Notes under the pieces: model-generated
Databases searched by the model: none
The model's input: the letters and a program-made list of their open reading frames with translations, nothing else
Told to the model about the DNA's origin: nothing
Shown: piece after piece, positions 4,258 through 54,707 of the stretch
Numbering within the stretch: position 1 is the first letter of the stretch
Layout: the number at the start of each line of letters is the position of its first letter
Made by a program: the position numbers and the translations under genes
From: a virus
Lineage: Duplodnaviria > Caudoviricetes
Length of the DNA: 55,105 nt
Virus record (IMG/VR): IMGVR_UViG_3300036770_004953
Location: 1 to 55,105 of that record
Direction: 5' to 3' (one strand)

Positions 4258-6755
4258 ATAAATGGCATACAAGTGTAAAATGCGTAGGAGATAAGATTCT
4301 AGTAAGAGGTTATTATGATGGTCTGCCTTATCAAGATGTTGTTGAATACCAACCAACTCTTTATCTTAAGTCAAAAGAACCGACTGATTATAAGAGCCTT
4401 GAGGATGAGTTTCTAAAGCCAATTAAGCCCGGTACGATCAGAGACACCAGAAAGTTTCTTGAGAAGTACAAAGAGGTTGATGGATTTAAAATCTATGGAA
4501 ACGAGAGTCCGGTTTATCAGTTCATTGCTGATGAATTCCCCGAACGCATAGAATTCCAGATGGATAAGCATAAGATTTATTATCTGGACATTGAGACCAC
4601 ATCAGAACACGGTGGGGTTGATGTTGAGGCAGCAAGAGAGCAGATTCTTCTTGTGACGGTTATGGATTATACTTCCAAAAAATCCATAACCTTTGGTTCT
4701 CGCCCTTATTCAAAGATTATTGAGAATAATACTTACATTGAATGTAAGAATGAGACAGAATTGCTTGAGCGATTCTTAAAGTTCTGGGAAAAAGCCTATC
4801 CTGATGCTGTTTCTGGTTGGAACATCGAAACCTTCGACATTCCTTATCTTGTTAAAAGGATTGAAAAGACCCTTGGTAATAATCAATCTAAAAGACTTTC
4901 ACCTTGGAAAATCGTAAGGCTCAAGAATGTTATGGATCGTAGAACCGAAAAGACCTACGAAACCTTTGAAATTTATGGAGTCAATGTTCTCGACTATCTG
5001 CCTTATTTCAAAAAGTATGCAGGTATTGGTGTTGAGAACAATAAACTTGATACCGTGGCACAAGAGGTTCTTAAAGAAACCAAGTTAGATCACACAGAAT
5101 ACGAAACCTTTGCCGAGTTTTATACCAAGGATTGGGATCTGTTTGTCGAGTATAACATTGTTGACACTCAGCTTATTGATAAACTGGAGAAAAAACTTAG
5201 ACTTCTACAGCTAGCCTTTACTCTTGCGATGGATTCAAAGGTTAATCCTGAGGATACTCTTTCTCAAGGTAGAATGTGGGATGCGATCATTTATAACCAT
5301 CTCCTGGCAAAAAATGTTATCATCCCCACAAAATCTCCATCAGAGGAAAAAACCGAAAAGTACAAAGGGGCCTTCGTAAAACCACCCCAGATCGGCAAAT
5401 TTAAATGGGTTAGCTCATTCGACGTTTCCTCACTGTATCCATCTCTTATCAGAACATTTAACATCAGTCCAGAAACCTTGGTTCAAGAAAGGAATGATAC
5501 AGTAACAATTGATGCTATTGTCGATAATACCTTTACTCCAAAGCCAGACCATTCTGATTATTGCATTTGTGCCAATGGTTCGATGTATAGGAAGGAGTCT
5601 CAAGGGTTTCTTGCTAGGATTATGGAAGAAATGTTTGAAGAGCGTAAAGGTTATAAAAAGAAGATGCTCGATTATCAAAAGGAATACGAGCTTAATCCTA
5701 CAAACGAATTAGAAGAGTTGGTGGCAACTTATCGGATCTTACAAGAATCCAAAAAGCAATGTCTCAACTCGGCTTATGGAAGTTTGGGTTCGTCTTACTT
5801 TAGGTTTTATGACATTCGCAATGCTGAGGCCATCACTTATATGGGCCAGGCTGTTATCAAGACAGTTGAAAAACATCTAAACTCTTATCTGCAAAAGGTC
5901 ACGGGTGAAAAAATTGACTTCATTCTAGCAGAGGACACCGACTCTTGTTTTTTGAATTTGGAACCAGTCGTAGACAAGGTTTTCAAGGACAATCTTCCCT
6001 CAGAGCAGGAAATTATCGACTTCCTCTGTTCCATCTGTGATAATCAGATCCAAAAGGTTATTGATCGAATTTTCGAACAGTTTTCTAAAACTACCAATGC
6101 CTTCCAAAACTGTCTTCATATGAAACGAGAGAAGATTTGTTCTTCTGCCTTATGGAAAGCCAAAAAGAATTACATCCTTTACGTCTGGGATAATGAGGGT
6201 GTTCGCTACTCTGAACCAAAGATTAAAGTCAGTGGAATCGAAGCGGTTAAAACCTCAACACCCGCTGTCTGTAGAGGAAAGATTAAAAAGGCCATTGAAT
6301 ACATTATGAGTTCAACGGAAGATGAGCTTATTGATTTTATTCAAGAGTTCAAAGCCGAGTTTTTTGCCCTTCCACCTGAGGATGTATCATTCCCAAGAAA
6401 GGTTTCTGACATTGATAAATGGTTCAGTAAGTCAACTACATACATCAAGGGAACACCTATTCAAGCAAGAGCAGCAATCCTTTACAATAAGTACATAAAC
6501 GAAAAGAATCTTGTCAATAAGTACCCCTTGATCAAGAATGGCGAAAATCTTAAGTTTTGTTATCTAAGAATCCCCAATCCAATCAAAGAAGATGTTATTG
6601 GATACGTCCAAAGATTCCCGAAAGAACTTAACCTTGAAAGCTACGTTGATTATCAGAAACAGTTTGAATTAACATTTCTTCAACCATTAACCAAAATTCT
6701 TGATGTTATTGGCTGGAGAACAGAAAAACACGCAACATTAGACGATTTATTCTAA
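4254..6755 (+). CDS. gp43: family B DNA polymerase (T4 gp43)
   Basis: ExoI LDIET, ExoII GWNIETFDIPY, ExoIII YNIVD, pol SFDVSSLYPS, K..LNSAYG, DTDS, KKNY. Confidence 0.97.
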   Translation: MNKWHTSVKCVGDKILVRGYYDGLPYQDVVEYQPTLYLKSKEPTDYKSLEDEFLKPIKPGTIRDTRKFLEKYKEVDGFKIYGNESPVYQFIADEFPERIEFQMDKHKIYYLDIETTSEHGGVDVEAAREQILLVTVMDYTSKKSITFGSRPYSKIIENNTYIECKNETELLERFLKFWEKAYPDAVSGWNIETFDIPYLVKRIEKTLGNNQSKRLSPWKIVRLKNVMDRRTEKTYETFEIYGVNVLDYLPYFKKYAGIGVENNKLDTVAQEVLKETKLDHTEYETFAEFYTKDWDLFVEYNIVDTQLIDKLEKKLRLLQLAFTLAMDSKVNPEDTLSQGRMWDAIIYNHLLAKNVIIPTKSPSEEKTEKYKGAFVKPPQIGKFKWVSSFDVSSLYPSLIRTFNISPETLVQERNDTVTIDAIVDNTFTPKPDHSDYCICANGSMYRKESQGFLARIMEEMFEERKGYKKKMLDYQKEYELNPTNELEELVATYRILQESKKQCLNSAYGSLGSSYFRFYDIRNAEAITYMGQAVIKTVEKHLNSYLQKVTGEKIDFILAEDTDSCFLNLEPVVDKVFKDNLPSEQEIIDFLCSICDNQIQKVIDRIFEQFSKTTNAFQNCLHMKREKICSSALWKAKKNYILYVWDNEGVRYSEPKIKVSGIEAVKTSTPAVCRGKIKKAIEYIMSSTEDELIDFIQEFKAEFFALPPEDVSFPRKVSDIDKWFSKSTTYIKGTPIQARAAILYNKYINEKNLVNKYPLIKNGENLKFCYLRIPNPIKEDVIGYVQRFPKELNLESYVDYQKQFELTFLQPLTKILDVIGWRTEKHATLDDLF

Positions 6756-6756
6756 A

Positions 6757-7818
6757 ATGGATTTTTTAAAAAGTATTGTTAAAGAGATCGGCAAAGAATA
6801 CGCTGCCGTTGCCTCGGACATTGTTGAGAATCAGACCTTTGTTGATACAGGCTCATACATCCTTAATGCCTTGGTATCTGGAAGTATCTTTGGTGGTATC
6901 TCTCAAAATAAGATCACTGCTCTTGCTGCACCAGAAGCCTGTGGTAAAACCTTTATTGCCCTTTCTGTAGTCAGAAACTTTCTACAGCAAAACCCTGAGG
7001 CATTTTGCCTTTATTTTGATACAGAGTCTGCTATTACCAAAAAGCTACTAGAGGATAAAGGGATCGACATTAATCGAGTTGTTGTCATTAATGTGGTCAC
7101 TGTCGAAGAGTTTCGCCGCAAGGCGCTTAAGGCGGTGGATATGTATTTAAATACACCGAAAAAAGAGCGAAAGCCTTGTATGTTTGTTTTAGACTCTTTG
7201 GGTATGTTATCAACCAATAAAGAGATTGGTGATACCCTAGCAGAAAAAGACACAAGGGATATGACAAAGGCTGCCCTACTCAAAGGTGCGTTCCGTATGC
7301 TAACCTTAAAACTGGGCCAGGCTGACATCCCAATGATCGTAAATAACCACCTTTATGATACAATGGAAGCCTATGCAACTAAGAAAATGAGCGGAGGTTC
7401 TTCGATCGCTTATTCAGCATCATCTATCCTTTACATCTCCAAGACTAAAGAAAAAGAAGGAACCGAAATTGCAGGAGTTATTCTCAGATTCAAAACGATC
7501 AAGTCTCGATTAAGTAAAGAAAACCAAGATGTAGAGGTTCGACTATTTTATGATGAACGAGGATTAGATCGCTACTACGGTCTTATTGAACTGGGAGAGG
7601 AAGCGGGTATTATCCCTAGGGTTGGTGCTCGTTATGAGATTGATGGTAAAAAACTAGGAAGAAAAACAATCCTAGAGGATCCAGAGAAGTATTTCACTCC
7701 AGAATTACTTGAGCGTCTGGATGCTTATGCAAAAACAAAATTTATGTATGGTCAATCAACCAAAGGTGAAGAACACGATGACAATGACGACGACGAAGAC
7801 GACGATCCAGCTGAATGA
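6757..7818 (+). CDS. uvsX: RecA-like recombinase UvsX
   Basis: DTGSYILNALVSG, Walker A-like APEACGKT, YFDTE, VLDSLGML, MSGGS; acidic tail. Confidence 0.93.
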   Translation: MDFLKSIVKEIGKEYAAVASDIVENQTFVDTGSYILNALVSGSIFGGISQNKITALAAPEACGKTFIALSVVRNFLQQNPEAFCLYFDTESAITKKLLEDKGIDINRVVVINVVTVEEFRRKALKAVDMYLNTPKKERKPCMFVLDSLGMLSTNKEIGDTLAEKDTRDMTKAALLKGAFRMLTLKLGQADIPMIVNNHLYDTMEAYATKKMSGGSSIAYSASSILYISKTKEKEGTEIAGVILRFKTIKSRLSKENQDVEVRLFYDERGLDRYYGLIELGEEAGIIPRVGARYEIDGKKLGRKTILEDPEKYFTPELLERLDAYAKTKFMYGQSTKGEEHDDNDDDEDDDPAE

Positions 7819-12494: not shown

Positions 12495-13940
12495 ATGAGC
12501 ACTGAATACACGGTCGGTTTTCAACAAATGCGAGAGATTTATGTTGAGTCTATCGCACCTCAGAATTTGTTAGAGAAAAAGAAGGACAAAGAAGAAACTA
12601 AGAAAACTACTACAGATGATGAAAATGAATTAGATCCTGTCGGACAGGAAGACGAAGACATTAATAATAATGGTAAGAAAAATGATAAAAATGATAAATA
12701 TCTTTTAAATCGTAGACGTGTTCGCTCTAGAATTATCAATTCTGAAAAGAAAATCGACGAAGACACAGACTTCGCCCCAGAACGTCTAGAGTATTATGAT
12801 TGGCGTTCAACTATTTCTGAGGACATTCAGGCTGCAATTGATGAGCTAGACGGTGACCAAATCCAAGAAAAACCAGTCAATAATTATGCAAAAGGTAAAA
12901 ATGGAAAATCAGTTGTAACGATCAATCCTACGATTAACATTGGTGAGGCTGCTGCATCCCTTGGAGGTGAGCTACTAATGGAAAGTGAGCTTGAGATTGA
13001 TGATGTTATTGAAATCGCTGCTGGTTATTTTTATGATCAAGGCCTAACTCCTGAGGGTGTTGAAATTGTTATTGAAGAACTGGGTGAAGAGGCTTTTTAT
13101 CAATTTGCCATTGAACTTACTGAAAATTACATTCTCACAGAGGCCCGCCGCAGTGGTCGTATTGAGCCTGTTACTAAAACGGGTAAATCGGTCGCTGAAC
13201 TTAAAGGTGGTGCAAAGACATCCGCTATTAATCGTCTAAGAAAAGAGAAGCAATCACGTAGAGAAGCAGAATCACAGGCAGCTCAAAAACCTTCTGGTAT
13301 GACTGGTGCTTTAAGAGCCCAATCAGAACTCGCAAGAAAGAGTGCTATTAAAACCGCCAGACAACAGCAACCGCAAACTAATGCTTCTCCAACTAGAAAG
13401 AAGAGAGGTATTCTTGATGTTGTTGCCGCTGAGATTCTTAAAGGTATGGAGAGAGATAAGGCAGCCCGCGAAAAGTTTGCTCAATCCAAAACAGGTCAGG
13501 CACTAAGAACTGCTGGTGGTATCGTATCTGGTGCAGCTGGAGCAGCATCCCGTGCTATGGAATCTCCTATCGTTCAAAAGGCAGAGCGTAACGTCACTGC
13601 AGCAGCACTAAAAGGCACTCGTAAAGTTGCTAGAGGCGCCCGTGATCTTGCTGCCAAAGAGGTAGGCCGCCGCAGGGCCTATGCCGAAGAAGTGGAACAA
13701 CTAGATGAAAAATCTGTTTCTACTCAACAACAAAAACTGTTTGGTTCTGCCTTATCTGTTAAGAGAGGTGAAACCCCAAGAAGTGAAGTAAGTAAGGATG
13801 TTCTAGAAATTGTTGATTCAATGTCTGAAACTGAAATTCGCAAGTTTGCAAAGACTAAGCACAAAGGTCTGCCTAAAGTTAAAGAGCCAATGAATGAAAG
13901 TTTATCTTATGAAGACATTCTTCGCTTTATGAAGAAGTGA
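12495..13940 (+). CDS. hypothetical protein, putative head/internal protein
   Basis: long ORF; alternating acidic and basic segments; C-terminal KSVSTQQQKLFG...FAKTKHKGLP module. Confidence 0.75.
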   Translation: MSTEYTVGFQQMREIYVESIAPQNLLEKKKDKEETKKTTTDDENELDPVGQEDEDINNNGKKNDKNDKYLLNRRRVRSRIINSEKKIDEDTDFAPERLEYYDWRSTISEDIQAAIDELDGDQIQEKPVNNYAKGKNGKSVVTINPTINIGEAAASLGGELLMESELEIDDVIEIAAGYFYDQGLTPEGVEIVIEELGEEAFYQFAIELTENYILTEARRSGRIEPVTKTGKSVAELKGGAKTSAINRLRKEKQSRREAESQAAQKPSGMTGALRAQSELARKSAIKTARQQQPQTNASPTRKKRGILDVVAAEILKGMERDKAAREKFAQSKTGQALRTAGGIVSGAAGAASRAMESPIVQKAERNVTAAALKGTRKVARGARDLAAKEVGRRRAYAEEVEQLDEKSVSTQQQKLFGSALSVKRGETPRSEVSKDVLEIVDSMSETEIRKFAKTKHKGLPKVKEPMNESLSYEDILRFMKK

Positions 13941-31760: not shown

Positions 31761-34700
31761 ATGCCAGAGTATCTTAGCGGTAAAAAAAGAAAACAAAGTT
31801 TAGGGGTTAGCAGTTATTCCGAGAACAAGGATACCGCTAGTATTATTGGTAATGTCTTAGTATCCTCTGGCAAAATTGGTGTTGGTACCACCTTACCAAC
31901 TCAAGATGTTGACGTACAAACAATTCGAATCAGGGACACTGTTTATGATTATACCAATTCGGGTGGTGTCTTTGGTTATTATCTAGTAAAAGATACAGAT
32001 GGTATTAAGTGGGTTGCAGTCCCGCCGATTGATTCTAATGCTATCTTTGTCGCAGAGAACAATAACATCCTTGGTGTAAGCTCTTTCACGGGTCTTAACA
32101 TCATTTCTGATGATTACATTGGGGTCTCTACGAACCCTGTTAATACTAATTTTGCTGACATTCGATACATCCCTTCTTGGGTTAAAAACGGTGAACTTGG
32201 CATTTACACCTCAAAGAATGTTGGTATTGGTACATCTATTCCGACTGCCGATTTTCAAGTTGGTGTAGGAACTACTGGTGTAACGATTGATGGTGCCGCT
32301 GGTGTCGTTAGTGCCTTAGCCTATTATGGTGATGATGCCTTTATTAAGAGACTTATTGCGGGTGTAACCACTGTTAGCGATGAGTTTACTGTTGTTGGCC
32401 TTGGTACGACTCTTGTTGCTGTTAATTTAGCATCAGCTGGAGGTATTACGACAACTGGTGGGGATCTCTACATCGGAGGATCTTTATTTGCAGAAACGAT
32501 AAACATTATTGATTTAGAAGTTGTTAACATCAATTCAACTGGTGTCTCAACATTTAATCAATCATTCACTAATGTTGGTGTTGCAACTACTTTTATTGTT
32601 ACTGGAATCGCATCAATCAATGATCTTCTTGTAACGGGCGTCACAACTGTCCAGGACCTATTCGCGCAGAACATTGATGTTGTTGGTGTTACCACAACCA
32701 ACACAATTAATGCAACAACTGGTATTATTACCAACTTAACAACTGAGGTTGGTTTTATCACCAATCTGGTTTCTGTTGCTGCTACGATTACTAATTTAAC
32801 AGCAGAAATTATTACGGGTATTGGTAGTGCTTATCTACCTGTAGCATCTATTGATAGCCTTGTAGGTCTTGCTGCAACGTTCAGTAATCTTGATAGCGAT
32901 AATGCTACAATTGATTATCAAGTCGGCATCGGGGCTACATTTACTGATGTTAATGTTACATCTGGTATTGTATCTAATCTTATTAGTGCTGCATCAACTA
33001 TTTCTACGCTTGATGTTGATAATGCCACTATTGATTATCAGACTGGAATCGGTGCTACCTTTACTAATCTTAATGCAACAACTGGTATTGTCACTAATTT
33101 CACCTCTGTCAATGCTACCAGCAATAATCTTGTTGTTACAGGAATTACAACTTTAGGTAATTCATCCAGCGGTATTGTTACTGTTATTGGCGATCTTTAT
33201 GTTGGCGATAAGTTATACACCACGGGCCTACAGCAGTTCGATTCTCTTCAATCTGGTGATCTTAATGTAACAGGTATTGCAACAATTAATGATGCATTTT
33301 TAACTGATCTGGTTGCGGATACGGCTACCTTTACAACTCTAACCTCAACAAATAATGATTTAGCCAACATCATAGGTGTTGCAGCAACTATCACTAGAAT
33401 CGAGACTGATCTTATTGATGCAGAAGATGCTGTATTAGAAAATCTGTTTGTTTCTGGCATCTCCACGTTTAACTCTATTACTGTAGTTAATGAAGTTACA
33501 ACTGGTATTCTAACTGTTTCCCAGCTGGACGTACAAGATGAATTTGATGTTTATGCTAATACTTCTGTATTCCATAATAATCTGATTATTCAAGGTAATC
33601 TTACGGTCAATGGTACCGAAACGATTATCAACACCGAAGAAAAGTACATTAAGGATAAACAGATTGTTCTTGGTTATTCGACAACAAACGGAACCAATGA
33701 AATAACAGCAAATGGTGGTGGTATTGCGATTGCATCTACCATCGGAACTCCGCTTGTTTCACTTTATGTAATTGGTGTTAATACCCTACCCGATACTTAT
33801 AAGCAATTCCTTTGGACCAAGGCCGGCACTTATGGTGTTGGTACTACGGATGCTTTCCTATCCAATTATGCAATCGGTATCGGCTCAACATTAGTACCTA
33901 CTGGGGTAAGACTTGCTGTTGGCGGAATTCAGCTAACGGATAATGGGATTGCTGTTCCTAACATTGTATCAACTGGTATTGCAACCTTTAACCTTGTAAA
34001 CTTAAATTCTGTTGAATTTATTAATCTAATCGGTGCGGCAATTTCTGCTAATAGTCTTAAAGTATCTGGTATAACAACCCTAGGTGCTCCTGGTCCATCG
34101 GGCTTCACCACAACTTTAGGCGACCTTTATGTTGGCGGTGATCTTTATACCAAAGGTATCCAGTTCTTCGATAACATTGGGGCCACTCTTCTTAATGTAA
34201 CTGGTGTTGGTACGATTAATACTATTGATGTTAATAATGGTACTTTTGATTATCTTGTTGGCATCGCTGCAACAATTCCAACTCTTAATTCAACGAACAT
34301 TGTTTCTACTGCTGCATCTTTTATTAACCTAAGAGTTGCCGGTCTTTCTACATTTACGGATGGTCCTGTTTTAGTAGGTTCTGGCACTTCAACTGGAACC
34401 CTAAATCAACGATTGCAAGTTACTGGTGGTTTTTATGCCTCCGGTAATGCTGGTATTGGTACTACTAATCCAACATCCAAACTTGATGTTATTGGTGATG
34501 GTCGATTCAGTGGAGTTGTTACTGCTGCTACATTTATTGGATCATTTTCAGGAAATGCTACAACTGCTGATTATGCAGACTATGCGGACTTTGCTGGTGT
34601 TTCAACAAGTGTTATTGGTGGTATTGGGTCCTTAACAAGATTAAGTGTCAGTGGTATTTCTACATTTACCTCTGGTCCTGTTCTTATTGGTTCTGGAACT

Positions 34701-48076: not shown

Positions 48077-49423
48077 ATGCTTCAAATCTCTGAAAAGGCC
48101 AATGTCAACTACTTGGCAAAAGTCGTAAAACTTGCCAATCTCCGTAAGCACACCAATGCCGATCGGTTGCAAGTCGCTACTATTGATGGTAATAATGTTA
48201 TTACCAGTCTTGATGCTCAAGAGGGTATGCTTTATGTGTACTTCCCTCTTGAGTCTGCTATCAATAAGGAATACTTGTCTTATAGCAATGCCTTCGCTTC
48301 GAAAGAGCTGAACTCTAATCCTGAGGTAAAGGGTTATTTCCCCAATACCGGACGTGTGCGAGCAGCTCGCCTTCGGGGAGAACGATCTGAAGGATACATT
48401 GTTCCTGTCACCGACATTAGCCGTTGGCTGAAGGATGCTTATGGTAAAGAAATGACCTTTACCGAAGAACACGCCAATACCGAGTTTGATCTGGTCTGTG
48501 ACATTAAACTGTGTGAAAAGTACGTTAACCGTGAGCAGCTAATTCGTGAACGTAAGGAAAACAAAAACACCAAGAAGAAGGCCAAAGTATCTCGACTTGT
48601 GGATGATCAATTCCATTTCCACATTGATACACCTCAACTCAAGAAGTTTATTCACGAGGTTAATCCCGATGATTACATCCACATCAGCCGTAAATTGCAC
48701 GGCACTTCTGCAATCATCAGCCGGGTTCTTTGTGTCAAACCTTTGACTTGGTATGAGAAGCTTCTTAAGCGCCTCAAACTTAACATTGTTGATACTCATT
48801 ATGATCTGGTCTACAGCAGCCGTAAGGTTGTTAAGAACGGTTACCTTAATGAGGAAGAAGCTAACCACAACCATTACTACAGCAGCGATGTTTGGGGTGA
48901 TTGTGCCAAGAAGTATGAGCACTGCCTAAAAGATGGTATTTCCCTTTATGGTGAAATTGTAGGCTTTACCACTGATGGTTCTGCCATCCAAAAAGGATAC
49001 GATTATGGTTGTGCTCCTAATACGTTTGACTTCTATGTCTACCGAGTAACTTATACCTCTCCTTCCGGGGATGTTTATGAGTTCACCCCACGGCAGATGG
49101 AGGCTTATTGTGCCAAGTATGGTATTAAGACCGTTCCTCTAATCTATTATGGTAAGGCCCGCGATTTTTATGACATTTCTGTTAATGATCATTGGCACGA
49201 GACTTTCCTTCAAAAACTTTGCGATGATTATCTAGAATTAGACTGCACTCTTTGCTCTAATTCTGTTCCAGATGAAGGTATCTGCCTGAGGGTAGATAAG
49301 CCTCTCGACATTCAAGTCTACAAACTCAAGAGCTTCCGATTCTTTGAGCGAGAGACTAAACTTCTAGATGAAGGAGTTGTTGACTTGGAAACTTTTGAGG
49401 CAGAGTCCCAAGAAGATTCTTAA
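48077..49423 (+). CDS. ATP-dependent RNA ligase (Rnl2/DRB0094-like) with N-terminal OB-like domain
   Basis: H.NADRL N-terminal motif; motif I KLHGTS, III GEIVG, IIIa FYVY, IV DEGICLR, V KLKS. Confidence 0.85.
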   Translation: MLQISEKANVNYLAKVVKLANLRKHTNADRLQVATIDGNNVITSLDAQEGMLYVYFPLESAINKEYLSYSNAFASKELNSNPEVKGYFPNTGRVRAARLRGERSEGYIVPVTDISRWLKDAYGKEMTFTEEHANTEFDLVCDIKLCEKYVNREQLIRERKENKNTKKKAKVSRLVDDQFHFHIDTPQLKKFIHEVNPDDYIHISRKLHGTSAIISRVLCVKPLTWYEKLLKRLKLNIVDTHYDLVYSSRKVVKNGYLNEEEANHNHYYSSDVWGDCAKKYEHCLKDGISLYGEIVGFTTDGSAIQKGYDYGCAPNTFDFYVYRVTYTSPSGDVYEFTPRQMEAYCAKYGIKTVPLIYYGKARDFYDISVNDHWHETFLQKLCDDYLELDCTLCSNSVPDEGICLRVDKPLDIQVYKLKSFRFFERETKLLDEGVVDLETFEAESQEDS

Positions 49424-49436
49424 GTCTAAATAAACC

Positions 49437-49488
49437 AGAGTCGATAGACGACTCTAAACCAAATTAAATTCTAATGGAGATTTAGAAT
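49437..49488 (+). promoter_or_regulatory. two-hairpin leader motif, copy 1
   Basis: agagtcg-ATAGA-cgactct, then attctaa-tGGAGat-ttagaat covering SD and start codon. Confidence 0.6.
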
Positions 49489-50500
49489 GACCAAACAATT
49501 CGATGCGATGGTTTTTATTGGACGTTTCCAGCCATTGCATAATGCCCACGTCTTTACAATCAATCGAGCCCTAGAGCTAGCCGAAAAAGTTATCGTTGTT
49601 ATCGGCTCTTGCGATAGGCCAAGAAATCTTAAAAATCCTTTCACAAAAGAAGAAAGGACGTATTTTATTAAGTCTCTCTTTCCTGACGATAATGTTATCG
49701 TTGATGGGACTTATGACTCAATGTATAACAATGATGCCTGGGCACTGAGGGTCCAGAATGTTGTTCATCAATACACATCCCCGACCGATAAGATTGGTAT
49801 TATTGGTCATAAGAAGGATGCCACGACTGAGGACTATCTAAAAATGTTCCCGCAATGGGGTGATCCTATTGAGGTCCCATTTAACCAGGACATTTCTGCG
49901 ACTCAAATCAGGGATCTTTATTTCAATGGTGCGGATCTACATTTTTTTGAAGGTGTTATGCACCCACAAATCATTCGGTTTCTATCCGCATTTCGAGAAG
50001 AAAATGTGGGTTATGGATACCTGATCCAGGAAAAAGAGTTCATTGAGAAGTATAAGAGACAGTTTTCTGGTTATCCTTATTTGCCTTATTTTATCACTAC
50101 GGATGTGGTCTGCACTCAATCAGCCCACGTCCTTATGGTAGAACGGGGGGCAATGCCAGGAAAAGGTCAACTTGCCTTGCCAGGAGGATTTCTTGGACAA
50201 CAAGAATTTCTTATTGATAGTGCTCTTAGGGAATTGAAAGAGGAAACAAAAATTGATGTTCCTTTAAAGGTCCTTAGGGGCAGTATTCAAGGATCACACG
50301 TCTTTGATCATCCCAATCGCTCATTCAGGGGCCGTACTGTTACCCATACCTTTGCAATCAACCTACCCCCAGGTCCATTACCCTCAGTAAAAGGTGGGGA
50401 TGATGCCCGATCTGCTCAATGGATTCCCTACTCTGAACTAGATCCAACGATGATTTATGAGGATCACTGGGAGCAGATTATGTTTATGCGTTCACTTTAA
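49487..50500 (+). CDS. nadM: bifunctional NMN adenylyltransferase / Nudix hydrolase (NadM-Nudix, NatV-like)
   Basis: GRFQPLHNAH, KNPFT..ER, ISATQIR; Nudix box PGGF...E....SALRELKEET; GDDA. Confidence 0.92.
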   Translation: MTKQFDAMVFIGRFQPLHNAHVFTINRALELAEKVIVVIGSCDRPRNLKNPFTKEERTYFIKSLFPDDNVIVDGTYDSMYNNDAWALRVQNVVHQYTSPTDKIGIIGHKKDATTEDYLKMFPQWGDPIEVPFNQDISATQIRDLYFNGADLHFFEGVMHPQIIRFLSAFREENVGYGYLIQEKEFIEKYKRQFSGYPYLPYFITTDVVCTQSAHVLMVERGAMPGKGQLALPGGFLGQQEFLIDSALRELKEETKIDVPLKVLRGSIQGSHVFDHPNRSFRGRTVTHTFAINLPPGPLPSVKGGDDARSAQWIPYSELDPTMIYEDHWEQIMFMRSL

Positions 50501-50502
50501 AT

Positions 50503-50548
50503 TTGTTGGATAGACCAACAACACTACTATTCTAAAGGAGCTTTAGAA
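50503..50548 (+). promoter_or_regulatory. two-hairpin leader motif, copy 2
   Basis: ttgttgg-ATAGA-ccaacaa, then ttctaaag-GAG-ctttagaa covering the SD. Confidence 0.6.
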
Positions 50549-50550
50549 CA

Positions 50551-51969
50551 ATGAATCACACTAGCTTTACCGAAAACGAATTCGAAATTCTCGAAAAGTC
50601 CATCCTTATTGATACGGATGGTTATAAGTTTTCCCATCTATTTATGTTGATCCCTGGCACCACTAATGAAAGTGCCTACATCGCACCAAGAGGTGGCGAT
50701 TGGGAACAAATTGTCCACTTTGGCCCGCAGATGTTCTTTAAGAAGTATCTGTCTAGGCCCATCACAAAAGAAGAAGTTGAAGTGGCAACTAAGTTTGCCT
50801 TAATGCAAGGAACCAGCTTTAATAGTGAGGGTTATCAATACATTGTTGATAAACATCAAGGAAAGCTGCCAATCAGGATTAAGTCTCTTCCTGAAGGGAC
50901 GGTTGTTAATCCTAAGACAATTGTTGGTACCATTGAGGTAACGGATCCCACCTGTTCTTGGCTTGTAAGTCCACTTGAATCTCCTTTGCTTAGGGCTTTC
51001 TGGTATCCATCGACCGTGGCAACCAGGGCCTTTAATGCAAAAAGGATTATTAAAAATTACTTGAACAAAACTGGAACCCCTGAAATATTGGATTATAAGG
51101 TTGCTGACTTTGGCCTGAGAGGTGTAAGCAGTAAAGAATCTGCTGGAATCGGTGGGGCTGCTCACTTGACATCCTTCAAAATCAGTGATAATAACACAGG
51201 TGCTCTTTGGGCAATGCGTTATTACAATGAAGATGTAACACAAACTACAATTGATGCAACTCAGCACTCGATTTCTTGCCAATGGAAGCAAGATGATGAA
51301 GAGGATTATGTTCGTCACATCTTACGAGTTTGCGGTAAAAAGGGTGCATTATTCGCCATTGTTGCCGACACTTATGATGTTTACGAGTTCTGCCATAAGG
51401 TAGGTTCGCTGCGAGAAGAAATCGAGGCAACAGAATCCACCTTGATTCTAAGACCGGATAGTGGCTTTCCGCCTGAAGTTGCACTGGGTTGTATTACAAT
51501 CCTTGATAGTTATTTTGGAACAACTATCAATGAGAAGGGCTATCACGTCTTGAATACCGTTCGATTAATTTATGGTGATAGTATTGATTGTTCGATGATT
51601 GATCGGGTGCTTTATAAGCTCTCTGTCAACGGCTATTCTGCCGATAACATCACCTTTGGTTGGGGCCATAAGCTCCTTCAAGAAGCCGCCAGAGACGACC
51701 ACCAGTACGCCCAGAAGACTTCTGCAATGGAGCGAAACGGGCAATGGATCGGTCAACGTAAAAAGCCCGCCACAGCAGCCGGCAAAAGCTCTTTAGAGGG
51801 CCGTTATTCGGTCGTACAGAAAGAGGATGGTCGGTTCCTTAATGTCCGTAATGATAACGATGAATATCTACCAAATGACATTCTGCTTCCTCATTTTGAG
51901 AATGGAGAACTTTTGATTGATTATAATCTGTCGGAAATTCGTGAAACGATTAATTCTTATCTGAATTAA
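50551..51969 (+). CDS. nadV: nicotinamide phosphoribosyltransferase (NadV/Nampt)
   Basis: DTDGYKFSH, WYPSTVAT, DFGLRG, GGAAHL, HS, DTYD, RPDSG, K.S..GR. Confidence 0.9.
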   Translation: MNHTSFTENEFEILEKSILIDTDGYKFSHLFMLIPGTTNESAYIAPRGGDWEQIVHFGPQMFFKKYLSRPITKEEVEVATKFALMQGTSFNSEGYQYIVDKHQGKLPIRIKSLPEGTVVNPKTIVGTIEVTDPTCSWLVSPLESPLLRAFWYPSTVATRAFNAKRIIKNYLNKTGTPEILDYKVADFGLRGVSSKESAGIGGAAHLTSFKISDNNTGALWAMRYYNEDVTQTTIDATQHSISCQWKQDDEEDYVRHILRVCGKKGALFAIVADTYDVYEFCHKVGSLREEIEATESTLILRPDSGFPPEVALGCITILDSYFGTTINEKGYHVLNTVRLIYGDSIDCSMIDRVLYKLSVNGYSADNITFGWGHKLLQEAARDDHQYAQKTSAMERNGQWIGQRKKPATAAGKSSLEGRYSVVQKEDGRFLNVRNDNDEYLPNDILLPHFENGELLIDYNLSEIRETINSYLN

Positions 51970-52807: not shown

Positions 52808-52867
52808 AAGATGAGACAGCAACCCCCTCTGCCTTACACGATTAATGTAACCCGCAAAACTCATCTT
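52808..52867 (+). ncRNA. WAG-N6-CHGCAA hairpin element 1
   Basis: aagatgag / ctcatctt stem; CAGCAA at 52817; inner ttaca-cgattaa-tgtaa stem-loop. Confidence 0.7.
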
Positions 52868-52874
52868 GTCAATT

Positions 52875-52909
52875 AAGTTGACACCGCAAACCCTATTTCT
52901 ACTCAACTT
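52875..52909 (+). ncRNA. WAG-N6-CHGCAA hairpin element 2 (abuts start codon)
   Basis: aagttga / tcaactt stem; CCGCAA at 52884. Confidence 0.6.
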
Positions 52910-52917
52910 GTAAAATT

Positions 52918-54387
52918 ATGACTTTCCTAACCGCTCTTGAATCTGAACTAAACGTAACGACGACTGCCAATGGTGCCAAGGCCTATTCATCTACACTAAA
53001 TTGTTGCCTTGATCTTTTCGGCACAATTGCTGCCTCCCGTGATAACATTGATAATGTCCGTAGAATCTTTGCCAGGGCTTATCAAACAAATCCTGAGGTT
53101 GCCCTATTGATTCTTTTCTGGGCCAGGGACATTCGTGGCGGTCAAGGTGAGCGAAAAGTTTTTCGTGAGCTATTTAAATATCTCGCCACCCAAGACGAAG
53201 CTGCTGTAAGGAAAGTTATTAATCTTGTGCCTTATTATGGTCGTTGGGATGATCTTCTTGTTCTAGAAGAAACCAATCTTTGGCCTGAAGTGCTTAAAAT
53301 GATTGAAAAGCAATTGTTTTTCGATCTTAATTCACAAGATGACCACGATTCTGTTTCCCTTCTTGCGAAGTGGCTACCTTCGATTAATGCCTCTAGCCAA
53401 AATAGCAAGCGTCTTGGTCGCAAGATTGCTGCCCATCTTGGCTGGTCAGAGCGCATTTATCGGAAAAAGCTGCAGTTTCTGCGCACTAAAATTCGCATTG
53501 TTGAGCAGAAAATGTGCGCAAAACAGTGGTCTGAAATTGAGTATTCACATTTGCCTTCTCGTGCTGCCTTTATGTATCGAAAGGCCTTCAATAAGCGCGA
53601 TGAAATGCGCTACAAACAGTACCTTGAGTCTGTAGAAAAGGGCGAGGCAAAGATCAATGCTGGAACTCTATACCCTTATGACATTGTAGATCAGTATCTT
53701 AACAAGGGTGCTCGTGATGATAAAACTATTGATCTGCAATGGGAGGCTCTTCCTAACTTTATGGAAGGTAATGAGTTCAATGGTCTTGTTGTTGCTGATG
53801 TTTCCGGTTCGATGAGTGGATTGCCTATGGCGGTTTCTATTTCTCTTGCCATGTACATTTCCGAGCGCAACTCTTCTCCTGTTTGGAAGAATAAGTTTAT
53901 TACCTTTAGTATGAAACCGAGCATTCAGTCTGTTGTTGGAAAAACTATTGGTGATAAAATCAATAACTTGCGCCGCGCAGAATGGGGGTATAACACTAAT
54001 CTTGTTGCAGTCTTCAATACGATTCTTTCCGCTGCGAAAGAGCATAAAGTTGCCCCAAGTGAAATGCCCCAGAAATTGATTATTGTTTCTGACATGCAAT
54101 TTGATGAGGCCTGTGCATCGAATAGTAAGACTAATTTTGAGCACATCACCTCTCTTTATCGAGATGCAGGTTATGAACTTCCTCAACTTATTTTCTGGAA
54201 TGTCCGTGGTAATTCCAATGTTCCAATTAAGGCTGATGACACTGGAACTGCTCTTGTTTCTGGTTGTAGTCCTTCTATCCTTAAGACAATTCTGTCTGGG
54301 AATCAGGTTACTCCCGTTGACACAATGATGGAAACGCTTTATGTAGAGCGTTATCAACCCATCGTTGATGCTCTTAAATCTAATTGA
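52918..54387 (+). CDS. DUF2828-like protein with C-terminal vWA domain (possibly TROVE/Ro60-like)
   Basis: T.NGA.AY.ST...CLDLF, ARDIRGGQGER, YGRWDDL, AKWLPS, L.PY, vWA MIDAS DVSGSM, W..NTN...VF..IL, SDMQFD, FWN, VSG.SP. Confidence 0.85.
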   Translation: MTFLTALESELNVTTTANGAKAYSSTLNCCLDLFGTIAASRDNIDNVRRIFARAYQTNPEVALLILFWARDIRGGQGERKVFRELFKYLATQDEAAVRKVINLVPYYGRWDDLLVLEETNLWPEVLKMIEKQLFFDLNSQDDHDSVSLLAKWLPSINASSQNSKRLGRKIAAHLGWSERIYRKKLQFLRTKIRIVEQKMCAKQWSEIEYSHLPSRAAFMYRKAFNKRDEMRYKQYLESVEKGEAKINAGTLYPYDIVDQYLNKGARDDKTIDLQWEALPNFMEGNEFNGLVVADVSGSMSGLPMAVSISLAMYISERNSSPVWKNKFITFSMKPSIQSVVGKTIGDKINNLRRAEWGYNTNLVAVFNTILSAAKEHKVAPSEMPQKLIIVSDMQFDEACASNSKTNFEHITSLYRDAGYELPQLIFWNVRGNSNVPIKADDTGTALVSGCSPSILKTILSGNQVTPVDTMMETLYVERYQPIVDALKSN

Positions 54388-54397
54388 ATAATTTCTT

Positions 54398-54445
54398 TAG
54401 GTGTTTCTGCAATTCTACCCTCGCTTATGGAAAAAAAGACACCTA
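54398..54445 (+). ncRNA. WAG-N6-CHGCAA hairpin element 3
   Basis: taggtgt(tt) / (ag)acaccta stem; CTGCAA at 54407. Confidence 0.7.
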
Positions 54446-54450
54446 GTTAT

Positions 54451-54502
54451 AAGATGAGTCTGCAATTTTTAAACTACATTTAAGAGTTAAAAAACTCATC
54501 TT
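54451..54502 (+). ncRNA. WAG-N6-CHGCAA hairpin element 4
   Basis: aagatgagt / actcatctt stem; CTGCAA at 54460; inner aact/agtt stem. Confidence 0.7.
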
Positions 54503-54508
54503 GAAAAT

Positions 54509-54620
54509 GGAGATGTAGCTCAGCTGGTAGAGCAACGTAATGTAAATCTTGTCAAAGATTTCTCTGCAATCCTAATGCATGTCAAGCCGTTGGTCCTAGG
54601 TTCAAGTCCTAGCATCTCCG
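54509..54620 (+). tRNA. tRNA-Asp(GUC)-like gene with 39-nt insertion in anticodon stem
   Basis: acceptor GGAGATG/CATCTCC + G73; D arm GCTC-AGCTGGTA-GAGC; T arm CTAGG-TTCAAGT-CCTAG; removing 54538-54576 gives ACGGC-ATGTCAA-GCCGT and a 73-nt cloverleaf; no encoded CCA. Confidence 0.8.
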
Positions 54621-54621
54621 T

Positions 54622-54671
54622 TAGATGGTTCAGCAATTCTCACGTTTTTTGGGAAAACACAAGACCATCTA
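54622..54671 (+). ncRNA. WAG-N6-CHGCAA hairpin element 5
   Basis: tagatggt / accatcta stem; CAGCAA at 54631; inner gttt-TTTGGGA-aaac. Confidence 0.7.
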
Positions 54672-54707
54672 GCCTCATAAATAATCCAACCCAATTTGGA
54701 TTATTTT

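Follow-up and report, generated by a model that had tools for sequence, protein, structure and literature searches.

Near the end of the window, the 55,105-nucleotide (nt) stretch of viral DNA (Caudoviricetes; IMG/VR record IMGVR_UViG_3300036770_004953) analysed in this work, there is a gene for a transfer RNA (tRNA)-shaped molecule whose anticodon stem is interrupted by a 39-nt insert. Y RNAs are known partners of Ro60 proteins, and to our knowledge no function has been agreed for their tRNA-like half. Judged from its sequence, the insert is most likely not an intron but the protein-binding module of the Y-like RNAs encoded around it. The whole molecule, here called a handle-tRNA, is rated as a circularly permuted, anticodon-bearing YrlA-type Y RNA that would be partnered with the DUF2828 branch of Ro-like proteins. 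We put the probability at about 0.6 that it acts as an unspliced molecule of the Y-RNA class, its handle binding the Ro-like protein and displaying a whole tRNA.

The tRNA-shaped gene and its family

The only Rfam match in the window is the tRNA model (RF00005), which covers the gene from end to end (model positions 1–71; 50.7 bits, gathering score 29) and aligns 50 nt in place of the model's 11. ARAGORN, run at default settings on the whole window, finds 0 tRNAs, and calls a 73-nt tRNA-Asp(gtc) once 54538–54576 are deleted. A contiguous 5-base-pair (bp) anticodon stem is absent, being split 3 + 2 by the 39 nt, and a standard tRNA finder misses the gene. The original prediction, made from the letters alone, had described canonical acceptor, D and T arms, an insert between tRNA positions 29 and 30 and a 73-nt tRNA on its excision; all coordinates and strings are present in the sequence, and the two ARAGORN runs agree with the proposed excision product. 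Its view that the insert is no group I or group II intron also holds, given the length of 39 nt and an Rfam scan of the window in which no intron family was matched even at E <= 10. Its assignment of Asp identity stands as far as the ARAGORN call on the GUC anticodon goes, and is weakened by the relatives described below, in which the same stem, ACGGC/GCCGU, bears many different anticodons. The 7-nt anticodon loop of the window gene, AUGUCAA, has A32, U33, A37 and A38.

The unedited 112-nt RNA folds with a minimum free energy (MFE) of −31.6 kcal/mol (z = −2.8; 0 of 200 shuffles equally good), with the acceptor, D, T and insert hairpins all formed. The insert is a hairpin in the junction in both the MFE and the centroid fold, and no bulge-helix-bulge was found in either. 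An assembly artefact, a concern attached to the original prediction, is ruled out because contigs of three separate studies (runs X3, X4 and X10) span the stretch with the insert, at 0–9 differences, and none joins across it; no junction skipping the insert was found in the contigs of any run checked.

The gene belongs to a recurrent family with covarying structure. The first homologue search, by BLAST for distant matches against sequenced phages, returned features of 110 and 114 nt annotated as “tRNA-Pseudo” in Synechococcus phages B3/B23 and Aeromonas phage Ahp1. Their insert hairpin carries compensatory changes, reading AAAUCUU/AAGAUUU in the window, AUAUCUA/UAGAUAU in B3 and CAUCCU/AGGAUG in Ahp1. 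An exact 15-base pattern at the junction of the D arm and the anticodon stem occurs in 96 IMG/VR stretches, many of them with the same architecture, and the layout recurs in dozens of IMG/VR contigs besides those phages (related contigs and loci are labelled with L-numbers, such as L005 or L060). A covariance model, R1, was built from an alignment of 18 sequences; it scores the window RNA at 106.2 bits, and together with the pattern scan its searches gave 72 distinct sequences of at least 95 nt. Both sides change in 7/7 pairs of the insert hairpin, 7/7 of the acceptor stem and 4/5 of the T stem in this alignment, in which 96% of the handle-hairpin cells and 97.6% of those over the whole structure are paired. 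None of 500 shuffles reached the whole-structure covariation score. The G and C of the C-N-GCAA motif are invariant and the next A is at least 90% conserved. With positions set by anchors and not by pairing, positions 27–29 pair with 41–43 across the insert in 45 of the 72 members, against 1–4 of 72 in slid controls. In L099, double changes keep two elements paired, the elbow (G19-C56 to A19-U56) and the anticodon stem (CCG/CGG). Random, motif-free occurrence of the insert, another concern raised beforehand, does not agree with seven covarying handle pairs and a layout shared by B3/B23, Ahp1 and the IMG/VR contigs. Of 53 family members left unedited, 4 are called by ARAGORN. The MFE folds of three RNAs, those of the window, B3 and Ahp1, suggest that GUA (54537–54539) may pair with the UGC of CUGCAA; this pairing is impossible in the CAGCAA variants, and the bases involved are invariant. 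One further R1 match in the window (33945–34082; 9.6 bits, E = 1.6) was set aside as weak and due to chance.

Some relatives depart from this plan. L005:10101–10218 and its orthologues in L053 and L023 are handle-tRNAs on another scaffold, with D arm GUGU/GCAU; their arm CUUUUU-CUNNNAA-AAAAAG presents the anticodons GCA, GUA and CCA (Cys, Tyr, Trp) across the three related contigs. A 137-nt tRNA-like gene at L009:1724–1860, identical in L066 and L087, has the D arm of the window gene and the GCAACGUAA junction with a different, long insert; its downstream arm is GGGGU-CUCUAAA-ACCUC, in which the triplet CUA would read amber.

The handle, its open counterparts and the DUF2828 gene

The motif WAG-N6-CWGCMA occurs 13 times in the window, compared with 3.6 ± 1.9 times in shuffles (0 of 100 reach 13). 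Five copies cluster at 52808–54636 around the DUF2828 gene, and four of these are open hairpins (Table 1); the matches at 32863 and 33373 lie inside a 1227-amino-acid (aa) open reading frame and are taken as chance. In the open hairpins, the 5′ strand is followed by one or two bases and CWGCAA; next come a variable loop that is A-rich towards its end, the 3′ strand and G. In the insert, the order is an A-rich stretch, the 3′-type strand AAAUCUU, GUCA, the 5′-type strand AAGAUUU, CU and CUGCAA, and the helix end AAGAU/AUCUU is identical in the insert and two of the open hairpins. The same parts are thus found in permuted order, as had been proposed. The module would consist of a short helix ending in WAGAU/AUCUW and flanked by an A-rich strand and by C-N-GCAA, one to each side; a tetraloop closes it here, and it is set into the 5′ strand of the anticodon stem. 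As judged from the alignment, the conserved features of the insert all belong to the Y-like open RNAs, and nothing more is conserved at its borders.

Mycobacteriophage JoeDirt offers a direct counterpart. Downstream (3′) of its “RNA-binding protein” gene, a DUF2828 homologue (38.6% identity over 99% of the query), lie a small open hairpin, an RNA in YrlA order and another small hairpin, each with CAGCAA behind its 5′ strand. The middle RNA runs 5′ strand, CAGCAA, T arm, closed acceptor hairpin, D arm, 3′ strand. The arrangement in the window matches that of JoeDirt except that the middle slot holds a tRNA-ended molecule, which argues that the insert is the module that forms the binding stem in a YrlA-type Y RNA, here with a loop closing it and with the ends of the molecule moved to the acceptor stem. 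The RNA, as its structure is predicted, is in topology a circular permutation of YrlA.

A recently mobile insert was considered and rejected: no insert-less, near-identical orthologue was found, and the TAAUG end repeat is not kept in relatives. When 36 queries with the insert deleted were compared with 1.66 Mb of related loci, 4 matched ordinary tRNAs across the junction, at 84–89% identity over 36–62 nt, and none exceeded 89% there. As a separate observation, L013:2424–2642 begins with a 5′ tRNA half ending in ...GUGAUCCUGUC, followed ~100 nt on by GGAUCA-GUU-CAGCAA, a T arm and an acceptor 3′ strand, with a TTGACA-type promoter-like stretch between the two parts; it may represent either tandem open YrlA-type genes or a handle-tRNA with an opened hairpin loop.

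The linkage of RNA and protein gene was measured on 16 close and 64 distant loci fetched through the protein alone, which gives an unbiased view. All 16 DUF2828 loci at or above 61% protein identity contain one to four long R1 matches downstream on the same strand. Conversely, of 24 records that were reached through the RNA pattern and searched, 19 have a DUF2828 gene, 15 in the fetched flank and 4 elsewhere in the record. Four of the remaining five are fragments or 43–70% complete. The fifth, L060, is complete. At ~570 nt downstream of a pair of tRNAs it encodes a canonical TROVE + vWA_Ro60 protein (Pfam 135 and 229 bits); at the 29/30 site, the first tRNA of the pair carries a different insert that lacks the hairpin-CNGCA module. 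The insert therefore changes with the type of Ro protein, as predicted for a binding handle. A home-made, strict detector of open YrlA-type RNAs recovers JoeDirt and is positive in 1 of the 64 distant and 2 of the 16 close loci, being too crude for the rest.

The 489-aa DUF2828 + DUF7788 protein corresponds to PHROG 850, “RNA-binding protein” (485 bits). By hhalign, its residues 288–459, the DUF7788 part, align to the vWA domain of Ro60, DVSGSM motif included (84.6%, E = 6.8e-6); as the next section sets out, the direct evidence that DUF2828 proteins are Ro60-like is partial. Homologues are found by tblastn in at least 710 sequenced phages, among them Felixounaviruses, phages of Listeria, Staphylococcus, Campylobacter, Vibrio and Aeromonas, and mycobacteriophages, several of whose proteins are annotated “Ro-like RNA binding protein”. 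A search of a protein atlas returned only DUF2828 clusters. In Felixounavirus nataliec, a relative of phage Bas63, the DUF2828 gene lies upstream of the tRNA array. This is the position of gp130 in Bas63, a protein that has a Ro60-like fold, is encoded directly upstream of the phage tRNA array and counters the ppl defence, according to the part of a preprint drawn on here (PMC11482910). By this synteny gp130 is probably a DUF2828 homologue. On a 911-kb IMG/VR contig, L104:6001–7482 is a DUF2828 homologue with six in-frame stops under table 11, either recoded or broken.

In the mechanism that we favour, one transcript would carry the RNA, the DUF2828/vWA gene and the small hairpin RNAs on either side. 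Trimming of the tRNA ends by RNase P and RNase Z would release the neighbouring hairpins as well, and the RNA would remain unspliced at ~112 nt. The handle would bind the Ro60-like DUF2828 protein, and the L-shaped tRNA body, with an anticodon loop that follows tRNA grammar and a free acceptor end, would be shown to tRNA-recognising factors. One option of the original prediction was a mimic of tRNA whose handle binds a protein, in an arrangement permuted with respect to YrlA; handle homology, the 16/16 linkage and the switch of insert in L060 point the same way, and binding itself is what we infer from them. The most probable use to the phage would be RNA repair or counter-defence; the molecule might, for instance, be a decoy for enzymes that act on anticodon loops, or an adaptor for them. 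This role is suggested by the RNA ligase in the window, by the anti-defence phenotype of Bas63 gp130 and by the link of Ro and Y RNA to tRNA-damage responses, described for the Salmonella rsr-yrlBA-rtcBA locus in the portion of PMC7790460 used here.

Other structured RNAs are encoded in some of the related contigs. A phage tRNA array in L037 includes a ROOL RNA (6462–7036; Rfam 290 bits) and, ~120 nt downstream of it, a handle-type tRNA of 129 nt (7156–7284); the only TROVE-like gene of the record is weak. L040, a phage contig, has a GOLLD RNA at 12861–13328 (199 bits), an open YrlA-like half-pattern and a large tRNA array. Two ARAGORN tRNAs with a 2-base and a 4-base “anticodon” and odd loop sizes (L015:2403–2476 and L015:2634–2705) adjoin a DUF2828 gene and three handle-tRNAs. 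Transfer-messenger RNA (tmRNA) genes lie a few kb from the DUF2828 cluster in L005 (7950–8243), L044, L090 and L017, some of them fitting the permuted tmRNA model. In the window itself, positions 49487–51969, between the RNA ligase gene and the DUF2828 cluster, hold a fused nicotinamide mononucleotide adenylyltransferase-like/Nudix gene and a NAMPT gene (nicotinamide adenine dinucleotide salvage).

Table 1 Coordinates of the handle-tRNA, its parts and neighbouring features in the window
Feature	Position	Strand	Remarks
RNA ligase	48077..49423	+	Pfam RNA_ligase 49 bits, PHA02142 OB domain, PHROG 968; no link to the RNA shown
Open hairpin RNA 1	52808..52872	+	AAGAUGAG-A-CAGCAA ... CUCAUCUU-GUCAA
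DUF2828 + DUF7788 protein, 489 aa	52918..54387	+	Proposed handle-binding partner; Pfam 134 and 179 bits
Open hairpin RNA 2	54398..54446	+	UAGGUGU-UU-CUGCAA ... ACACCUA-G
Open hairpin RNA 3	54451..54503	+	AAGAUGAG-U-CUGCAA ... CUCAUCUU-G; ends 5 nt before the 5′ end of the tRNA
tRNA-shaped RNA with embedded handle, 112 nt	54509..54620	+	Position 1 to discriminator G73; CCA not encoded
Acceptor stem, 7 bp	54509–54515 with 54613–54619	+	Read from the bases; G73 at 54620
D arm	54518–54533	+	GCUC/GAGC; canonical
Upper anticodon stem, positions 27–29	54535–54537	+	ACG; pairs with CGU beyond the insert
Insert between positions 29 and 30, 39 nt	54538..54576	+	UAAUGU-AAAUCUU-GUCA-AAGAUUU-CU-CUGCAA-UCCUAAU
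Handle hairpin, 7 bp + tetraloop	54544..54561	+	AAAUCUU/GUCA/AAGAUUU; covariation across 18 homologues
C-N-GCAA motif, 3′ of the handle hairpin	54564..54569	+	CUGCAA; conserved in the 18-sequence alignment
Lower anticodon stem and loop	54577–54590	+	GC-AUGUCAA-GC-CGU; anticodon GUC at 54581–54583
T arm	54596–54612	+	CUAGG/CCUAG, loop UUCAAGU; canonical
Open hairpin RNA 4	54622..54672	+	UAGAUGGU-U-CAGCAA ... ACCAUCUA-G; starts 2 nt past the discriminator

Spliced tRNA, spacer or relic

Several observations weigh against an unspliced Y RNA bound by a Ro60-like protein. Concerning the RNA, ARAGORN accepts as tRNAs the insert-deleted forms of 33/33 parsed members, and the anticodon loops are closer to a decoding grammar than a scaffold needs: G37 stands in 11/11 loops with G36 and in 1/25 without it (Fisher p = 2e-8, with phylogenetically related rows), U33 in 29/36 loops and a purine at position 37 in 34/36. 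The YrlA model RF02553, whose gathering score is 69, reaches 15 bits in the window, and 5 kb upstream there is a gene for an RNA ligase. The sequencing runs found to contain the stretch are DNA, with no RNA run among them. Concerning the protein, at 40–46% identity 3 of the 64 DUF2828 loci have an R1 match at E <= 1e-5; Pfam TROVE is not found in the 489-aa sequence even at E <= 10, sequence and profile searches of the PDB with it do not return Ro60, and similarity of the N-terminal DUF2828 part to the TROVE ring is not detected, hhalign aligning the vWA part only.

The loop and ligase data would suit a true pre-tRNA, the alternative that survives best and which we nonetheless consider unlikely. 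The handle would be a protein-recognised intron, cut at 29/30 and sealed by a ligase such as that of 48077–49423, to yield a decoding tRNA-Asp(GUC), and the Ro-like protein would hold or mark the precursor. In addition to the exact restoration of a canonical 73-nt tRNA here and of tRNAs in all parsed relatives, the loops keep the G36-G37 and U33 rules, and the change of UGG to UGU between the orthologues L005 and L023 is accompanied by G to A at position 37. Some anticodons are not doubled in the fetched locus (B3 UCG, L017 CCU and L065 GAG), and one member, L059:2291–2416, is a class-II, tRNA-Tyr-like form with a long variable arm. The same loops are also relaxed, U33 being missing in 7/36 and the purine at 37 in 2/36, which favours the Y-type reading. 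Nor is tRNA grammar decisive in a mimic, since YrlA is reportedly modified by tRNA enzymes, in the passages of PMC4201824 used here.

Other data speak against removal of the insert. Array siblings in which the handle replaces the anticodon loop (L019:11026–11137, L074:7371–7488 and L023:982–1096) can never become tRNAs because the module occupies the place of that loop, and splicing cannot help them. Ser anticodons (GCU, UGA) occur on class-I bodies with 5-nt variable loops; seryl-tRNA synthetase needs a long variable arm. Several anticodons of handle-tRNAs are already provided by ordinary tRNAs of their own locus, as in L005 (Cys GCA, Pro UGG), L034 (Ile GAU) and L050 (Tyr GUA). We know of no bacterial or phage machinery that excises a 39-nt insert from an anticodon stem, which counts against the pre-tRNA. 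For cleavage and ligation by the nearby ligase, the second option of the original prediction, no positive evidence was found, though the loops do obey tRNA rules; the lack of a bulge-helix-bulge in the folds, of a matching Rfam intron family and of conservation at the insert borders stands against it, as do the Y-like nature of all conserved insert features and the failure of the 36 queries to reveal an insert-less, near-identical orthologue. The anticodon itself was examined as a mutation hot spot and rejected as one, with 3 of 60 mismatches in 7 independent close pairs against ~1.5 expected (binomial p = 0.20); diversifying selection is not claimed because of this negative test.

A variant of the splicing idea would make the handle-tRNAs conditional tRNAs, in which the Y-like module serves as a ribonucleoprotein-dependent intron or lock, recognised by DUF2828 and removed by cleavage and the phage ligase. 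On the sequence data at hand it is decidedly unlikely. If true, the phage would possess private decoding tRNAs in which one scaffold presents many anticodons and which, before processing, are inert or resist nucleases. Bacteria and phages would then have their first case of tRNA splicing that depends on a protein; splicing in any form would mean a new RNA-processing pathway.

The tRNA shape could instead be punctuation, cut by RNase P and RNase Z to free the flanking hairpins, while the handle makes the spacer one more protein ligand. The spacing fits, open hairpins 3 and 4 lying close to position 1 and to G73, and arrays in relatives alternate handle-tRNAs and open hairpins. No terminator-like site was found at 54388–54700, and the sole promoter-like site near the cluster (54365–54392, 9/12) overlaps the gene end; the cluster region has 3 promoter-like sites, for 4.7 expected from shuffles. 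Punctuation, however, needs neither an anticodon arm with conserved loop grammar nor an embedded handle with 7/7 covarying pairs. We regard it as very unlikely in its own right, and as compatible with an unspliced Y RNA rather than an alternative to it. Finally, a dead tRNA-Asp gene, struck by chance insertion of a copy of the repeated intergenic hairpin, is hardly credible: the “tRNA-Pseudo” label given to the B3 and Ahp1 homologues by tRNAscan-based annotation and the failure of ARAGORN on the window gene would suit it, but it is contradicted by the conservation of the RNA, whose insert is kept with compensatory changes in cyanophage-like, Aeromonas-phage and many other contigs, which is present in all close loci and in independent metagenomes, and whose acceptor and T-stem pairs covary, as does the L099 elbow.

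Relation to known Y RNAs, Ro loci and tRNA introns

Archaeal tRNA introns may occupy non-canonical positions, are marked by a bulge-helix-bulge and include short inserts in the anticodon-stem region whose removal restores a canonical tRNA. The handle-tRNA differs from them in that no bulge-helix-bulge is predicted, the phage is one of bacteria and the structure of the insert is common to hairpins that are not tRNAs.

In Rfam 15 there is no family for the handle-tRNA beyond the generic tRNA, and where homologues are annotated they are called pseudo-tRNAs. The full-text literature searches made here turned up no account of a tRNA that has a Y-RNA module embedded in it; the supplements of Chen et al. 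2014, with lists of phage YrlA, may bear on this. YrlA (RF02553) at its gathering score was found in none of 17 related loci. “tRNA-Pseudo” calls next to DUF2828 or Ro-like genes are to be regarded as probable functional RNAs.

Among phage Ro loci, that of Bas63 likewise has the protein gene directly upstream of tRNA genes, and the authors suggest, in the same part of the preprint, that some of the Bas63 tRNA genes may be Y RNAs (PMC11482910). It differs in that model R1 finds no handle-tRNA in the corresponding array of Felixounavirus nataliec. Our finding would tie DUF2828 to Ro60 biology and fits that report of anti-defence activity. In the Thermus phage phiLo, a Ro60 gene adjoins the small, Y-like hairpin RNAs Yrl1 and Yrl2, for which binding was demonstrated in vitro (PMC12135203, cited for an excerpt). 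The RNAs described there are open hairpins of the stem-bulge-stem type that carry a CGAA motif and lack a tRNA body, and the protein is a canonical Ro60.

Yrn1 of Deinococcus radiodurans can be drawn with an “anticodon arm” and has an order of T and D arms unlike that of YrlA (PMC4201824, in the passage used here), which shows that tRNA-like Y RNAs do not all share one topology. The passage states the arm order only; in our reading of it, the binding stem of Yrn1 is at the acceptor position. Yrn1 further differs from the handle-tRNA in having a 6-nt loop and in not being a complete tRNA that is scored by a tRNA model.

The closest relative is YrlA, as characterised in the passages of Chen et al. 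2014 (PMC4201824) cited above. YrlA is encoded with smaller Y-like hairpins beside a Ro-type gene (helical domain + vWA), and the handle-tRNA with such hairpins beside a putative one; both contain the D arm, T arm and acceptor stem of a tRNA, and in both the binding stem leaves the body at the position of the anticodon stem. The segment composed of the D arm and “GCAACGUAA” is common to the handle-tRNA and the open YrlA-type RNAs near DUF2828 genes. They differ in the protein, which matches DUF2828/DUF7788 and not Pfam TROVE as beside YrlA, and in the place of the ends: YrlA ends in the binding stem and has a loop-closed acceptor, whereas the handle-tRNA ends in the 7-bp acceptor stem and has a closed binding stem. 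Unlike YrlA, it has a full anticodon stem, a 7-nt loop and a free acceptor end able in principle to receive CCA. Open hairpin, YrlA, handle-tRNA without an anticodon and handle-tRNA with one would thus form a natural series beside one protein family, in which the purpose of the tRNA part of a Y RNA may be studied. At the end of this series the Y-RNA design appears inverted, a complete tRNA carrying the protein-binding module as an internal graft.

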